Positions 46,561 to 54,644 of a stretch of 64,000 nt of DNA are shown in pieces. The number at the start of each line of letters is the position of its first letter. The first letter of the stretch is position 1. This DNA is from a bacterium. GTDB taxonomy: Bacteria > UBA8248. The notes beneath the pieces were generated by a model, which did not search any database, had not been told where the DNA came from, and worked only from the letters and a program-made list of their open reading frames with translations. A program made the translations under genes and the position numbers. The stretch is from NCBI GenBank assembly GCA_965219955.1, contig OZ244799.1, positions 4,064,001-4,128,000 on the forward strand, written 5' to 3'.

Positions 46561-47089
46561 GGGAGTGTTGAAAAAGTCCTGATGAAGGAGGGTTTGACGC
46601 AACCGAGGAGGGGTGGTTTTGTAGGTAGCGCTCCCTTCTTGGGAGCGCTACAGACATGCGGCCCTTGTAGTGGGCAAAAAAATCAGGGTCGCATATATGC
46701 GACCCCTACACACAAACAAATTTTCCTCTCGGGGTTTATCAACAAGCCCCTTTGAGGGTGATTGCTGACCGGTGGGAGAAGAATTTCACTCCCCCCTTGA
46801 GAGGGCTGTTGAAAAACCTTCGTGATGGTTTTGTAGGGACAACCCTCCGTGGTTGTCCTTCTGTTAGGACAGGCACGGAGGCCTGTCCCTACGGGACAGT
46901 GGGGTTTTGTTCGTCATTCCGGCGAAAGCCGGAATCCATTTGCTTTGTCTTTGTTTTTTCTTTTCTGATCGATTCGCGCCGATGACGAGGAGATGAAAAG
47001 CCGGCGTATTGTCATTCTGCTTGAAAATGGATTCCGGCTTTCGCCGGAATGACGGCAAACCCGGCATTGCAGGCTTTTTCAACAGCCCC
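46561..47089. repeat. Two adjacent composite palindromic repeat elements
   Basis: GTTGAAAAA / TT(T/A)TCAAC end pairs at about 46561-46750 and 46803-47089, with internal GTAG REPs and a GTCATTCCGGCGAAAGCCGGAATCC inverted pair. Confidence 0.85.
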
Positions 47090-47437: not shown

Positions 47438-47935
47438 GGGGTTGTTGAAAAAGCCCTGGTCGGCGACCTCGGACAGGCACAGGGGCCTGTCCCTACAAAA
47501 CCGAACACAACAATACGAACCCGTAGGGGCGGCCCCCCGTGGCCGCCCTGCCCTAATGGCCGCATGTGGTCCGTTATTGGCCGTCATTCCGGCGAAAGCC
47601 GGAATCCATTTTTATGCCTTTTGCCTTTCGTCAGGGTTTCTGCGCATCGGTGGGGAATGAAACGCCGTCGTTGATTCACTCTCATCCGCAAATGGATTCC
47701 GGGCAATCCCTCCCTCCTTGGTCGGCATTGATTGCCGGAATGACGAACAAAGCCACACCGCCTCATCCTGAGTAGGCGCGTAAGCGCCGTATCGAAGGAT
47801 GCCCTGTTGCCACGGCGCGAGCCCTTCGCCCTTCGATACGCCGCCTTCGGCGGCTACTCAGGGTGAGGTTGATATGGCGGTATGTAAGTCGATGGGAACG
47901 CCCCGCTCTTGGAACCGGGTTTTTCAACAACTCCC
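47438..47935. repeat. Composite palindromic repeat element
   Basis: GGGGTTGTTGAAAAA...TTTTTCAACAACTCCC enclosing three palindrome families. Confidence 0.85.
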
Positions 47936-49829: not shown

Positions 49830-50687
49830 ATGCCCGAAAGCCCTCCGCCCAAGCCGGCGACCTGGTTCACCGAGTACCACGGACCCGGCACCGGCCTCAC
49901 GATGAAGGTGCTGCGGACGCTCTATTCGGAGAGGAGCGCGTTTCAGGAGATCACCCTCGTGGAGACCGAGGATTTCGGGCGCGTCCTCCTGCTCGACGGG
50001 ATCATCCAGACCACCGAGCGCGACGAGTTCGTCTACCACGAGATGCTGGTCCACGTGCCCCTGTGTATGCATACCGATCCAAAGAACGTCCTCATCGTCG
50101 GCGGAGGCGACGGCGGCTGCGTACGCGAGGCGCTGCGCCACGAGACGGTGGAGAAAGTGACGCTCGTCGAGATCGACGGGATGGTGGTGGAGTGCTGCCG
50201 CGAGTTCCTGCCGTCCATCGCGGGAGGCCTGAACGACCCCCGCGTGGAGGTGCGGATAGAGGACGGGGTGAAGTTCATTGAGGGCAAAGAAGCAGCCTTC
50301 GACGTCATCCTGGTCGATTCCACGGATCCCGTCGCCATGGCGAATCCGCTCACGCAGGTCTCCTTTTTCCGCGCGGCCAAGCGCGCCCTCAGGCCCGGCG
50401 GCCTCTACGCCGCGCAGACGCAAGGCCCCGTGTTCGAGGGTCACAGGATGCGGCGCATCACGAGGCGCATCCGGCGGGTGTTCCCGGGCGCGGCGACGTA
50501 TCTCGCGAACGTGCCGACCTATCCGGGGGGGATATGGTCTTTCGCGCTCGCGCCCGAATCGAGGAGAACGGACGTCCGCGCGAAGCCGAGGCCGATGCCG
50601 CAGGCTGAGAAGACCCATTACTACTCCCCGGAAGTCCATGAGGCCGCCTTCACGCATCCCCCCTACGTGGCGGAGATTCTCGGCTGA
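49830..50687 (+). CDS. speE: Spermidine synthase (polyamine aminopropyltransferase)
   Basis: LDGIIQTTERDEFVYHEM, VLIVGGGDGG, VEID, DSTDP. Confidence 0.95.
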   Translation: MPESPPPKPATWFTEYHGPGTGLTMKVLRTLYSERSAFQEITLVETEDFGRVLLLDGIIQTTERDEFVYHEMLVHVPLCMHTDPKNVLIVGGGDGGCVREALRHETVEKVTLVEIDGMVVECCREFLPSIAGGLNDPRVEVRIEDGVKFIEGKEAAFDVILVDSTDPVAMANPLTQVSFFRAAKRALRPGGLYAAQTQGPVFEGHRMRRITRRIRRVFPGAATYLANVPTYPGGIWSFALAPESRRTDVRAKPRPMPQAEKTHYYSPEVHEAAFTHPPYVAEILG

Positions 50688-51544
50688 TGGGCGGGGAGGC
50701 CCGCCCGCGTTTTCTCTGCGCCGAAACCCCTTTCGAATCAGCGCGCGTCGTTCTCCTGGGGTGCCCCTTCGATGAGACGGCGAGCTTCCGCCGGGGCGCG
50801 CGTTTTGGGCCTGACGCCATCCGCGAAGCGTCCGATTGCCTCGAAACCTACAGCCCGCATCTGGATAAGGATTTGAGCGACGCCGCCCTGTGCGATATGG
50901 GCGACGTTGATTTTGTGTCCGACGATACGGAATCCGTTCTCGATTCCATCCGCTCCGAAGCTTTAGGGGTATTCCGGGCGGGCAAGCGCCCCATATTCCT
51001 GGGCGGTGAGCATCTGGTGAGCCTGCCCGCCGTGGAGGCGGCGCTGGGCGTCTTCCCCGGTCTTGCCGTATTCCAGTGGGACGCCCACGCGGACTTGCGC
51101 GACGACTACCTCGGCGGGCGCCTCTCGCACGCCTGCGTGATGCGGCGCATCCTGGAGCTTGAGGGCGTCGGGCCGCTCCATCAGTTCGGCGTCCGCTCGG
51201 GTACGCGCGAGGAGTTCGAATGGATGCGCGCGAACGACACCATGCGGCTCTTGAGTCCTGAGGCCGTATCGGCGGCGCTTCAGGAGACGGGCGATAGCGC
51301 CGTATACCTCACCCTCGACGTGGACGTCGTGAACCCCGGCGAGATGCCCGGAACCGGCAGCCCCGAACCCGGCGGCCCGGGGCTTGATGCGCTCATCGAT
51401 TGCATCCGTGTTCTCGACGCCTCGGGCGCGCGCATCATCGGCGCCGACGTGGTGGAACTCGCGCCGGAATGGGATCCCTCGGGTGCCAGCGCCGTCGCCG
51501 CCGCGAAGATAGTCCGAGAATTGACGCTCGTGCTGGGAGCGTGA
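50687..51544 (+). CDS. speB: Agmatinase
   Basis: GARFGP, LGGEH, DAHADL, DVDV, PGTGSPEPGG, DVVEL. Confidence 0.93.
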   Translation: MGGEARPRFLCAETPFESARVVLLGCPFDETASFRRGARFGPDAIREASDCLETYSPHLDKDLSDAALCDMGDVDFVSDDTESVLDSIRSEALGVFRAGKRPIFLGGEHLVSLPAVEAALGVFPGLAVFQWDAHADLRDDYLGGRLSHACVMRRILELEGVGPLHQFGVRSGTREEFEWMRANDTMRLLSPEAVSAALQETGDSAVYLTLDVDVVNPGEMPGTGSPEPGGPGLDALIDCIRVLDASGARIIGADVVELAPEWDPSGASAVAAAKIVRELTLVLGA

Positions 51545-51562
51545 GGGGGCAAATTTTTCCTG

Positions 51563-51658
51563 TTGACGAAGACTCGTAACAGTGGCATAGTTTTTTCACT
51601 ACTCCCCCAGGGGTTTCGACCGCTGGGTGCGGGGCCTCGGACGAGGCCCTGCTTTTTT
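51563..51658 (+). ncRNA. Putative promoter and short structured RNA ending in an intrinsic terminator, directly upstream of the NYN gene
   Basis: TTGACG-17nt-CATAGT; hairpin CCCAG.GGT-TTCG-ACC.CTGGG; hairpin GCGGGGCCTCG-GA-CGAGGCCCTGC followed by T6. Confidence 0.5.
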
Positions 51659-51668
51659 CAGGTAAGAT

Positions 51669-52292
51669 ATGCGGACTTATATCTACGTCGATGGATTCAA
51701 TCTCTACTACCGCTCGCTGAAGCAAACGCCGTTCAAATGGCTCGATCTCTCCGGGCTTTTCCGTGACGTGTTGAAGCCCCACCACGATATCCGCAAAATC
51801 AAATTCTTCACGGCGCGCGTCTCGGCACGACCTAACAATCTATCTGCACCGCAACGCCAGGACACTTATTTGCGAGCGTTAAAACATTATTGCCCGGAGG
51901 TTGAAGCTTATTTCGGGCATTTTCTGACGCATAAGATTCAAGCGCCGCTTGCCGATACCGGCAACAGGCGAAGGCTGGTGAATGTCGTCAGGACCGAGGA
52001 GAAGGGATCGGATGTAAATCTTGCCGTACACCTCCTGAATGATGCGTGGCTGAATGACTATGACTGCGCGGTAGTAGTTACGAACGACAGCGATATCGCC
52101 GAGGGCATGCGTCTCGTGAAAAAGCACAAAAGAAAATGGATTGGACTGGTAACACCCGGAACGAGTCATCCCTCTCGAGAGTTAATGGCCCATGCCGATT
52201 TCTCCCGCCGGATTCAAAAGAGAGCGCTGCGAAAGAATCAGCTTCCGTCCCCGATTCCCGGAACCAACATCACCAAGCCGACCAACTGGTGA
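51669..52292 (+). CDS. NYN (LabA/DUF88, PIN-like) domain ribonuclease
   Basis: YVDGFNLYY, EEKGSDVNLA, VTNDSDI. Confidence 0.9.
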   Translation: MRTYIYVDGFNLYYRSLKQTPFKWLDLSGLFRDVLKPHHDIRKIKFFTARVSARPNNLSAPQRQDTYLRALKHYCPEVEAYFGHFLTHKIQAPLADTGNRRRLVNVVRTEEKGSDVNLAVHLLNDAWLNDYDCAVVVTNDSDIAEGMRLVKKHKRKWIGLVTPGTSHPSRELMAHADFSRRIQKRALRKNQLPSPIPGTNITKPTNW

Positions 52293-52430
52293 ATTCGCTT
52301 GACTCCTGTTGCTGGAACACCCGCCCTGATCGCCGTCGCCGCATGGTCTTTGCTTTTTGTGCCCGGAGATGGGGATGTCTGGGCATCCACCACGGGTTAC
52401 ATGCGTATTCGTATTCAGGTCAGGTGAGGC

Positions 52431-52793
52431 ATGGACAGGCAAGGACATACTGGCTTCTGGGCGCTGGCGCTCCTGTGGCTGCCGGCCGGGATGGTCGCGA
52501 CCGTCATCGTGCGTTTCGGGGCCGAGCCGGCCATTTGGGCGCAGATGCCGATGGCGATGGTGTCGCTTATCCCGGTCGCGCCCTGCGGCCTTCCGCTGGC
52601 GCTGGGGTGCCGGCGGCTGTGGCGGCTGGGCTACCGCCGCGACGCCTGGGTGGCGGGAGTCTTGCTTGGCGTTTTCACTCTGGCGACGACGCTGGTGGGT
52701 GGACTGCTCGGCCCGATAGCCATCGCCCTCTTCGCGGTGGTCTTGAGCCTGCCGGTCTGGGCGGCGTCGTGGTGGCTCGCGCGGCGGGGTTGA
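52431..52793 (+). CDS. Small hypothetical membrane protein
   Basis: About four hydrophobic segments; GAGG RBS; host-like GC. Confidence 0.6.
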   Translation: MDRQGHTGFWALALLWLPAGMVATVIVRFGAEPAIWAQMPMAMVSLIPVAPCGLPLALGCRRLWRLGYRRDAWVAGVLLGVFTLATTLVGGLLGPIAIALFAVVLSLPVWAASWWLARRG

Positions 52794-52837
52794 GGGTGGG
52801 TACCTAAGAGGACAACAAAATACTGGGAAATGATCGA

Positions 52838-53407
52838 ATGGAAAAACGCATAGCTTTGCTTGGTTGGGGTTCTCTCCTTTGGGATAACAATAAGCAATTC
52901 GACGACTGGCATGGGCCTTGGCAAAGTGATGGTCCTACACTCAAAATTGAATTTTCTAGAATTTCTTCGTCCCGATGTGGTGCCCTAACGCTAGTCATAG
53001 ATCCAGACAATGGATTTGCCAATTCAGTATCTTGGGCCCTGAGCTATCGTTCAGAGCTTAGTGATGTCATTCAGGATCTGAAAAAACGAGAAAAAACCAT
53101 TTACAAATACATCGGTAGATTTTCTTTTGGAGGATACGAACATAGTTTAGACAGCAGTTCGCTCTCGGCAATCCGCAGTTGGGCAAATGAGCGTGGGCTG
53201 TATGGAGTCGTGTGGACAGACCTACCTAGTAACTTTGTGAAAGAAACCGGCTATTCCTTCTCAATTCATAATGCTTTGCAACATCTGCAAAGCCTAGATG
53301 ACTGTGCTAGGAAAAAGGCACTTGAATATATTCAAAAAGCTCCAGGTTCTATCCAAACACCGCTTCGTAACGCTATTGCACATCAACTGGAAAGTGGATT
53401 GACATGA
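52838..53407 (+). CDS. Hypothetical protein, gamma-glutamylcyclotransferase-like fold suspected
   Basis: IALLGWGSLLW resembles the GGCT/ChaC FGYGSL motif; EFSRIS, LTLVID; AT-rich single-gene islet. Confidence 0.6.
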   Translation: MEKRIALLGWGSLLWDNNKQFDDWHGPWQSDGPTLKIEFSRISSSRCGALTLVIDPDNGFANSVSWALSYRSELSDVIQDLKKREKTIYKYIGRFSFGGYEHSLDSSSLSAIRSWANERGLYGVVWTDLPSNFVKETGYSFSIHNALQHLQSLDDCARKKALEYIQKAPGSIQTPLRNAIAHQLESGLT

Positions 53408-53428
53408 ATTAAGTTTCTAAGCTCCCCC

Positions 53429-54163
53429 CTAACCCCCCTCCGCCTCGACGGCTTCCGCCATCTCGCCCATCGAGAAGAAGATGAAGTCGGTCGTGGGCAT
53501 GTTCTCGACCTTTTCCGTCGCTCCCCAGCTTCCGCCTTCGGAGAGCCTCTGCCGGTCGATCCAGGCGTTGGCGAGGCCGAAACGGTTCGCGGGCGCGTGG
53601 TCGTGGCGCAGGCTCTGCGCGGTGTGGAGGACGTCGGATTTCTCCAGCCCGAAGTCCGATTTCAGATGCGCGAGGAGGTACTCGAAGTTGGCGTCCGAAG
53701 GCTTGTAGGAGCCGATGTCCTCGGCGGTGTAGACCGCGTCGAACGCGACGCCGAGTTTCCTGTTCGAGGCGGCGAAGCCCTCGCGGTGGACGTTCGAGAG
53801 GATGACGAGCTTGTAGCGCCGCTTCAGGACGCGAAGCGCGTCCGCGGTATCGGGAAACGCCGGCCACAGCGGCACCGATGCGCCGAACGCTTGATCGAGC
53901 GCGCCGCTCGTCTCGAGGCCCAGGCTCTCCGCCATGCTCCGGTGGACTTTTGCGAGGAGGTCGGGATAGCGAAGCCCGGGCGAGGCGTGCTCGTGGTGGG
54001 CCTCCCACTTCGCGAAGGCCAGGAGTGTGGCCTCGCGCGTCACGCCTGAGTCGCCGCCTCCCATGATGAGCGGCTGCAGCGCGTCCCAGATGCCGGTCTC
54101 CCAGTCGATGAGGGTGCCGTAGCAGTCGAACGTCAGTACGCGGTAATCGGTCAGTCGGCCCAT
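53429..54163 (-). CDS. HAD-superfamily hydrolase (haloacid dehalogenase type II-like)
   Basis: LTFDCYGTLIDWE, ILSN, YKP, HTAQSLRHDH. Confidence 0.9.
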   Translation of the reverse strand: MGRLTDYRVLTFDCYGTLIDWETGIWDALQPLIMGGGDSGVTREATLLAFAKWEAHHEHASPGLRYPDLLAKVHRSMAESLGLETSGALDQAFGASVPLWPAFPDTADALRVLKRRYKLVILSNVHREGFAASNRKLGVAFDAVYTAEDIGSYKPSDANFEYLLAHLKSDFGLEKSDVLHTAQSLRHDHAPANRFGLANAWIDRQRLSEGGSWGATEKVENMPTTDFIFFSMGEMAEAVEAEGG

Positions 54164-54306
54164 GGTTCCGGTTTCCTGTGCGGGGGGATTCGGGTCTGCA
54201 CGATCAAAGTTTCTATGGCTGTGAGCGGGGGGTGTCAAGGGCCGCGCCACCAGCGTGAACGACACCCAAGCCGCAACGAAGCCGCGTACCGAAGCACACG
54301 CAACCC

Positions 54307-54441
54307 GTCATTCCGGCGAAAGCCGGAATCCATTCGCCTTTCGTTTTTATACTGTCGTTCCCGGCCCGATCATCGAGAAAAGAGAATGCCGTTATATGCG
54401 CGCCTCGTCTCTTTTTGGATTCCGGCTTTCGCCGGAATGAC
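54307..54441. repeat. Inverted pair of REP-like palindromes
   Basis: GTCATTCCGGCGAAAGCCGGAATCC...GGATTCCGGCTTTCGCCGGAATGAC. Confidence 0.9.
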
Positions 54442-54644
54442 GGCGCGTATCGGGGTTTCATTCAAACCCGGTTTGCATGGCGGAAGGAAATGTTTGTATA
54501 GTATAAATATCTTTGTGATTGATAAGATTGTATACAGTATACTTTATGGACGGCGGTTTTCCTCCGCGAATCGTTGATGGGGTAACCCGCTGATAATCAA
54601 AGTATTTCTGGAGCCGATTCATCATCTTGCGCTTGGAGACGCCC

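Follow-up and report, generated by a model that had tools for sequence, protein, structure and literature searches.

Organization of the locus

The stretch analyzed here, hereafter the window, comprises 64,000 nucleotides of a bacterial genome (GTDB lineage Bacteria; UBA8248; GenBank assembly GCA_965219955.1, contig OZ244799.1, positions 4,064,001 to 4,128,000 of the forward strand), and contains a gene for an NYN-domain protein of the HEC-09 family that is preceded by a short segment with the features of a small RNA gene. We propose, with a probability of about one half, that the two form a module made up of an RNA gene of ~60 nt and a HEC-09-type NYN ribonuclease gene, in which the RNA exerts antitoxin-like control over the NYN protein.

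The module lies on the plus strand behind an agmatinase (speB-like) gene (50687..51544, plus strand; Pfam Arginase family, E 3.3e-70), which is the last gene of a G+C-rich polyamine operon. The gap between the agmatinase stop codon and the NYN open reading frame (ORF) measures 124 bases, and holds a promoter and two hairpins. A promoter scan placed the sigma-70-like promoter of the small RNA at 51563..51591 (TTGACG-17-CATAGT, with a TG before the -10; 9 of 12 consensus matches). With its start inferred from the position of the -10, the RNA would begin with a predicted single-stranded 5' tail, ACUACUCC (51598..51605), and continue into a hairpin, P1 (51606..51627), which in the predicted fold has 8 pairs, one unpaired G on each side and a UUCG tetraloop cap. 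The second hairpin, P2, together with a U6 tract, is an intrinsic terminator that would form the 3' end of the RNA (51629..51658; predicted fold and terminator scan); its stem at 51629-51652 consists of 10 bp, 8 of them G-C, closed by a GGAC loop, and the T6 run follows at 51653-51658. A spacer of 10 nt with an AGGT Shine-Dalgarno-like box (51659..51668) then leads to the ATG of the NYN gene (51669..52292), 10 nt past the end of the T-run. The promoter, the UUCG hairpin, the GC stem with its T6 run and the short distance to the NYN ATG had been described in the sequence-only reading, and all were found in place, as was the higher A+T content of the NYN gene compared to the spe genes (49–53% versus 64–69% G+C).

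No promoter-like site was detected by the scan between the P2 terminator and the NYN ATG, and the 10-nt spacer is too short to accommodate a separate promoter, indicating that in the window the NYN gene is transcribed only through read-through of P2. The predicted fold of the 61-nt RNA (51598-51658) has an energy of -35.9 kcal/mol (z = -4.46), none of 200 shuffled sequences folded equally well, and the minimum-free-energy structure makes up 82% of the ensemble. A search of Rfam 15 with permissive filters on both strands of region 50500-53500 returned no match at E <= 1. The evidence that the RNA exceeds chance is comparative rather than local.

The NYN protein

The 207-aa product is a predicted metal-dependent ribonuclease. 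It scored 36.1 bits against Pfam NYN (PF01936; cut-off 24.2 bits, E 1.2e-8), and matched the PADLOC profile PDLC04163 (HEC-09) with E 2.2e-40 and 136.5 bits, residues 2-207 aligning with profile positions 3-202/203. Residues D8, N11, E110, E111, D140 and D142 were invariant across 22 homologues, and D115 was found in at least 90% of the rows. These 22 homologues also served to build an AlphaFold2 model with a mean pLDDT of 90.3, whose best structural matches were 2qip and the MARF1 NYN domains 5yaa and 6fdl, with a Foldseek probability of 1.00. The relatives were recovered by this fold search, while searching solved structures with a sequence profile yielded nothing beyond a chance match (E 0.64); NCBIfam returned nothing for the NYN protein or its neighbors. 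The Pfam score, the acidic active-site residues and the fold place the protein in the NYN family, and ribonuclease activity is predicted for it.

HEC-09 was described as a candidate defense gene embedded in Hma, a single NYN protein with a MARF1-like fold and conserved aspartates (bioRxiv 10.1101/2024.01.29.577857). The window protein shares the full-length profile match, the MARF1-like NYN fold and the conserved aspartates, but its gene follows a polyamine operon and is not embedded in an Hma (helicase-methylase-ATPase) system, which the HEC-09 profile itself does not demand. The RNA partner is an addition of the present analysis; in the passages of the preprint that were searched, the terms 'non-coding' and 'ncRNA' are absent (bioRxiv 10.1101/2024.01.29.577857). 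Within ~4 kb of the NYN gene lie the polyamine operon, a small membrane protein, a GGCT-like ORF and a HAD hydrolase, and no protein partner was conserved beside the NYN gene in the flanks of the window and its relatives.

Some Klebsiella and Xanthomonas plasmid records label the NYN homologue '6-hydroxy-3-succinoylpyridine (3-)monooxygenase or hydroxylase HspA'; the fold of an NYN nuclease speaks against this label, which seems to be an annotation error that has spread. Three genomes of the same genus or family (G014, G016 and G012) carry a second, longer NYN paralogue of ~250 aa elsewhere (E ~1e-64 to 1e-68 with the A4 profile). No motif of the kind described below was reported alongside this paralogue, for whose own RNA no search was aimed.

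Conservation and covariation of the RNA

Upstream regions were compared across 49 loci that had been collected by NYN protein similarity alone, without use of the RNA. These loci represent Nitrospinota, Arenicellales, Paracoccaceae, Desulfobacteraceae, Ignavibacteriales, Leptospiraceae, Chloroflexota, Acidobacteriaceae, Gemmatimonadaceae, Patescibacteria and others. In nearly all of them, the 130 nt 5' of the NYN gene contain a promoter-like site, a short AC.AC/CCC tail, P1, a linker and P2. P1 is mostly closed by UUCG in these relatives, the linker measures 1–3 nt, and the G+C-rich P2 ends in ..UGC and a U-run; a sequence of the form ACUAC or AC.CCCC is conserved directly 5' of P1. In close relatives, the upstream sequence again contains the end of the agmatinase gene.

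A covariance model, R1, was built from a MAFFT alignment of 28 upstream sequences folded with RNAalifold, which yielded 16 pairs, 15 of them with compensatory changes. In 47 of the 49 loci, R1 matched immediately 5' of NYN, with scores of 36–84 bits; of the two loci without a match, L034 has a longer-stemmed variant that was seen by eye, and L049 covers only NYN residues 142-179. The window itself gave one strong match (E 4.1e-25), while the rest of its genome held no second NYN gene and no second strong motif, the two other R1 matches having E values of 0.24 and 0.51. An alignment fitted to the model comprised 106 matches, 104 of them distinct, from 100 sources, after exclusion of chance, identical and overlapping loci. 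Among the 104 distinct sequences, 96.9% of cells were paired, compensatory changes were again found at 15 of 16 pairs, and 135 cells had changed on both sides, a number attained in none of 500 shuffles; sliding the 3' partner by one column reduced pairing to 59%. Both hairpins contributed, with compensatory changes at 8 of 8 modeled pairs of P1 (95.3% of cells paired) and 7 of 8 modeled pairs of P2 (98.6%). The fitted alignment is biased towards the structure of R1, but the independent MAFFT alignment gives the same picture. G-U pairs were abundant, occurring in 40 sequences at one pair and 27 at another, which indicates that the fold has been selected on this strand.

The promoter was conserved along with the fold. 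Sufficient upstream DNA was available for 103 sequences, of which 74 reached a promoter score of at least 8, compared to 38 after shuffling, and in 55 of these 74 the -10-like site ended 11–16 nt before P1. Among the loci examined, no intact NYN gene of this subfamily was seen to lack the RNA. The variant RNAs of more distant NYN clades lie beyond the reach of R1 and were inspected by eye; the model scored 10.8 bits on the array of a 4.5-kb E. coli plasmid, and gave nothing meaningful at the Klebsiella, Pseudomonas, Rhodococcus and M. kubicae loci. Two variant classes were distinguished, a GCGUGC-loop class and a AUUAAGUU class. At positions 2888-2997 of locus L008, an insertion of ~45 nt occupies the P2 loop, with P1 and the base of P2 retained.

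These comparisons bear on the simplest explanation of the window, that it holds only the terminator of the speB operon beside a chance promoter-like match. P2 is indeed the first terminator past the speB stop codon and the sole one found downstream of speB by the terminator scan, and the promoter scan returned 2 promoter-like sites in 3 kb against 1.2 expected, so that the promoter by itself is within chance. However, the same motif precedes NYN genes where spe genes are absent, in many phyla, on plasmids and on viral contigs, making this explanation scarcely credible. The sequence-only reading had staked its proposal on conservation and covariation upstream of homologous NYN genes and on the hairpins being more than a speB terminator, and both expectations were borne out, the promoter-RNA-terminator-ribonuclease layout proving to be family-wide. 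In this genus, speB transcripts may end at P2 as well. We also considered a riboswitch or antiterminator, which was rejected because the helices are plain, P1 is closed by a tetraloop, and inspection by eye revealed no conserved alternative pairing.

Orientation, repeat arrays and mobile elements

NYN homologues were found on 452 plasmid records, some of them only 3.5–4.6 kb in size, and on prophage and viral contigs. The plasmid hosts of HEC-09-type NYN genes include Klebsiella, E. coli and Xanthomonas, and such genes also occur in symbiont genomes. In several of these settings the RNA motif is not oriented with the NYN gene. In a Mycobacterium prophage (L189), the strand opposite NYN carries a complete motif, equipped with its own TTGACA promoter, immediately past the NYN stop codon, and a convergent motif was likewise found on a Paenarthrobacter plasmid (L190; 57.5 bits) and at viral loci L218, L219 and L221. 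At a further viral locus, L220, the motif is located upstream of NYN but diverges from it, with the promoter TTGACA-17-TATCGT. Among 47 viral loci found through the protein, R1 matched 28, comprising 24 co-directional, 3 convergent and 1 divergent arrangement; in most of the 12 inspected viral loci without an R1 match, the region 5' of NYN holds a two-hairpin RNA of variant form, its loop being of the GCGUGC type.

Repeat arrays provide a second departure from the layout of the window. On ColE1-type plasmids of E. coli (~4.5 kb), a promoter-like site is followed by 3–4 tandem units of ~33 nt, a terminator hairpin with a U-run, and NYN, each unit consisting of an AC.ACCCC box and a P1-like hairpin. 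Tandem Repeats Finder reported 2.6–3.3 copies of a 29–33-nt unit, where four can be counted by eye, and the array is present in 17 plasmid records. Such an order of elements is typical of type III toxin-antitoxin loci. The terminator hairpin of these plasmids is predicted by RNAfold, and is missed by the simple terminator scan, whose rule requires a longer loop. On one viral contig (L186, the same contig as L200), two complete motifs stand in tandem at 1483-1542 and 1551-1615, directly before NYN. This tandem layout is intermediate between the single unit and the repeat array.

It is conceivable that the element is only a cis-acting leader or attenuator, in which P2 throttles transcription and P1 is a site for autoregulatory binding or cleavage by NYN, with no toxin-antitoxin relation. 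E. coli rne, rnc and pnp carry autoregulatory 5' leader hairpins of this kind, which are part of the mRNA only. Like them, the module has, before a ribonuclease gene, a stable hairpin that the encoded enzyme could bind or cut, and in the window and most other loci the RNA is co-directional with NYN, its end lies 10–60 nt from the start codon, and there is no other promoter. The module RNA differs in having its own terminator, and in keeping its own promoter and terminator when it is convergent or divergent to NYN. At those loci it cannot be a leader, which points to a separate RNA gene. A simple leader would not be expected to contain P1 units in tandem arrays, a check by eye only revealed no conserved pairing of an alternative (antiterminator) kind, and complete motifs persist where NYN is absent, some of them beside phage genes. 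We consider the leader explanation rather unlikely. The inversions, the tandem arrays and the copies lacking NYN favor a separate RNA gene over a mere leader.

Copies of the motif without an NYN gene

Copies of the motif separated from NYN were sought with an exact-pattern scan for the P1-linker-P2 core that was blind to NYN, which identified at least 120 genome loci, 80 of which were taken for analysis. NYN sequence was present downstream in 47 of these, in many cases as fragments, while 21 had the full motif with no detectable NYN. The remaining 12 (L061, L064, L067, L068, L077, L078, L082, L085, L090, L092, L093 and L113) were discarded as chance matches in G+C-rich, coding-like DNA with no P2. 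Among the 106 R1 matches, the downstream NYN gene was intact in 49, a remnant in 20, absent in 21 and cut by a contig end in 3; in 13 more, NYN was covered but interrupted, or began beyond the search window. Within the genus of the window organism, the motif was found in 18 of 23 genomes, next to an NYN gene that was intact in 9, broken in 4 and missing in 5.

The exact pattern also matched 13 viral contigs, four of which represent one identical element, and an NYN gene was present in only one of the 13. In five others of the 13, the motif adjoins genes for a portal, an endolysin, a T7-type scaffold and connector, or an integrase. Some of the copies beside phage genes may be remnants of NYN modules, as the copy at L181 retains the first NYN codons. 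An argument from model scores that the RNA remains under selection after loss of NYN was dropped, since the scan picks intact motifs and P2 doubles, in this genus, as the speB terminator.

These copies also bear on a different role for the RNA, as a positive cofactor, such as a scaffold or activator of an active NYN ribonucleoprotein, instead of an inhibitor. The strict co-occurrence of the RNA with intact NYN genes and the conservation of single-stranded positions next to the helices agree with such a role, as does the absence, in the parts of the HEC-09 preprint consulted, of a report that its construct was toxic. However, a cofactor role does not readily account for RNA copies that outlive the enzyme or stand alone near phage genes, the sequence conservation of the RNA is higher than a variable guide would allow, and the layout, with RNA in excess and a terminator between RNA and enzyme, is a known design for inhibition. 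On this evidence a cofactor role appears improbable.

Second copies and neighboring cargo

Some loci carry a second copy of the motif. In three Nitrospinota loci, a copy without NYN stands before a small ORF and a Fic-like gene with the motif HPFINGNGR (L001 5513-6497; L003 2182-3277; L006 from 5807 onward); among these three, Fic was confirmed by Pfam in L001 only. In a gammaproteobacterial metagenome-assembled genome (L054), the motif precedes a 90-aa ORF and a Fic_N/Fic gene, and at L247 two copies flank a gene for a metallo-beta-lactamase-fold protein. At L002, L012, L018 and L020, what follows the second copy is either an NYN remnant or a second NYN gene in tandem, so that the pattern is explained at least partly by module duplication. 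Orphan copies adjoin toxin-antitoxin (TA), restriction and methylase genes.

Such associations might be expected if the element were a boundary or recombination site of mobile cassettes acting as a DNA fold, or a generic promoter-terminator insulator that travels with cassettes, and the second copies beside Fic and metallo-beta-lactamase-fold genes, as well as the orphan copies in defense surroundings, fit this explanation. Against it stand the strand specificity of the G-U pairs, the fixed distance of the promoter from P1 and the U-run after P2, the lack of any recombinase consistently associated in the flanks examined, and those second copies that precede NYN remnants or tandem NYN genes and so are explained by module duplication. 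We regard a cassette site as very unlikely.

The neighborhood of NYN-RNA and Fic recurs across loci, and on a 3.46-kb E. coli plasmid (L187 1967-2167) NYN is paired with a gene of the VbhA family (Fic antitoxin). Downstream of the module in the window lies an A+T-rich (41–47% G+C) ORF of 189 aa (52838-53407, plus strand), which matched no Pfam, NCBIfam or PADLOC family; PADLOC returned nothing for the two ORFs downstream of NYN. Its protein-language-model neighbors are AIG2/gamma-glutamylcyclotransferase-like clusters, which we take as a lead only. This ORF occupies a variable slot between the gene for a conserved membrane protein of 120 aa (52431-52793) and a HAD hydrolase gene (53429-54265, minus strand). 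In close relatives, the slot holds an EEP-family nuclease and an HTH gene (L001), a second copy of the motif with a small ORF and a Fic-like gene (L001, L003, L006), or a metallo-beta-lactamase-fold gene (L247). A REP-like palindromic element with the core CGTCATTCCGGCGAAAGCCGGAATCCA occurs in both orientations at 46907-47059, 47571-47617 and 54301-54444; its copies bracket the segment from the polyamine genes through NYN to the HAD hydrolase, and produce spurious ORFs with the recurring peptides FRRKPES and IPAFAGMT.

Proposed mechanism and relation to known systems

The RNA is conserved, structured and strand-specific, and adjoins NYN genes across phyla, plasmids and prophages in three relative orientations. 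Since in the window transcription reaches NYN only past the P2 terminator, the free RNA is expected to be far more abundant than NYN mRNA. By analogy with type III TA systems, we propose that the RNA is made in large excess, binds the NYN protein, and would keep it inactive as an RNA antitoxin or pseudo-substrate. The element recognized by NYN may be P1 with the AC.ACCC box on its 5' side, which we propose because that part is repeated in the E. coli arrays; the RNA of these tandem arrays could be cut into units by NYN. If the supply of RNA were to stop, through plasmid loss or phage shut-off of host transcription, NYN would be released and could cleave RNA of the cell and of the phage, leading to growth arrest or abortive infection.

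Type III TA systems have a terminator between toxI and toxN, and fall into three families, ToxIN, CptIN and TenpIN. Their antitoxin genes consist of direct repeats in tandem, which the toxin cuts into units; the toxin on its own arrests growth and is neutralized by direct binding of the RNA, and the associated phenotypes are abortive infection or plasmid stabilization. The module resembles them in that its endoribonuclease gene is immediately preceded by a non-coding RNA gene, the two being separated by a Rho-independent terminator, in its plasmid and defense contexts, and in the tandem RNA repeats of its E. coli plasmid relatives. It differs in its enzyme, which is NYN/PIN-like, whereas toxins of the ToxN/AbiQ, CptN and TenpN types are Kid-like. 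In ToxIN of the Pectobacterium plasmid pECA1039, ToxN has a Kid-family fold and is held by 36-nt pseudoknot RNA repeats (PMC3475682), while the ends of the window RNA would be set by its start site and terminator, with no need for processing. Inhibition of NYN by the RNA is proposed by analogy with these systems. The module is thus type III-like, yet outside the known type III families by virtue of its NYN/PIN-like fold and single-unit RNA. The type III-like label of the sequence-only reading consequently holds for the layout, and for the tandem repeats of the E. coli plasmid relatives, but not for the single-unit RNA of the window, nor for a fold that is not ToxN-like.

Another parallel is found in VapC, a PIN-domain toxin that is neutralized by a protein antitoxin encoded upstream. 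VapBC and the module share a PIN-like, metal-dependent ribonuclease as the presumed toxin, small size, mobility, frequent decay, and a location in TA and defense islands. Where VapBC has the gene for a protein antitoxin, however, the module has a structured RNA.

Several observations weigh against antitoxin-like control. No tandem repeats occur within 51400-52400, so that the window RNA is one unit of two plain hairpins, and not a series of pseudoknotted repeats as in type III systems. Inverted layouts are limited to few, mostly actinobacterial, lineages, and the most distant NYN clades, at 27–30% identity (e.g. L197, L198, L234 and L235), have no evident RNA. The pattern of NYN loss must be read with care, because the exact-pattern scan finds only intact motifs, an element of ~65 nt is a smaller mutation target than a 620-nt gene, and P2 has a second role in this genus as terminator of the speB operon, which alone could preserve the motif. 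Furthermore, according to the parts of the preprint consulted, the HEC-09 construct, with ~150 bp of upstream DNA and an added inducible promoter, gave no protection against any phage tested, and apparent toxicity was reported for HEC-03 and HEC-04 only (bioRxiv 10.1101/2024.01.29.577857). The suggestion of a possible antiphage role finds support in the membership of the protein in a published candidate defense family, but the one published test of a HEC-09 representative gave no defense against the phages tried.

It is possible, though on balance doubtful, that HEC-09 NYN and its RNA constitute a fourth, structurally unrelated RNA-antitoxin family, and that the NYN-less copies beside phage genes act as counter-defense decoys by neutralizing the nuclease of the host. 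Phage PhiTE carries pseudo-ToxI, an antitoxin-like non-coding RNA without a toxin (PMC3475682), which is a precedent by analogy for reading the NYN-less copies as decoys. The likeness, known here from sequence alone, is that full motifs without NYN adjoin phage genes, and the difference is that some of these copies, such as that at L181, may be NYN-module remnants. If this were the case, the negative test of HEC-09 could be explained by the co-expressed RNA and by unsuitable phages.

In the literature searched, we found no report that connects NYN with a partner RNA or an RNA antitoxin. The protein family itself is already published, and what is new here is the RNA partner of HEC-09 NYN. HEC-09-type NYN genes are currently annotated as lone hypothetical nucleases, and the presence of an RNA partner has consequences for their annotation, cloning and testing; with the versions on E. 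coli plasmids, the module can be tested directly in a laboratory strain. Should the RNA prove to be an antitoxin, the range of RNA-protein toxin-antitoxin systems would grow to include the PIN-like superfamily, the antitoxin would be the simplest of its kind known, consisting of one hairpin and a terminator, and the RNA copies without NYN would give phages a ready counter-measure.

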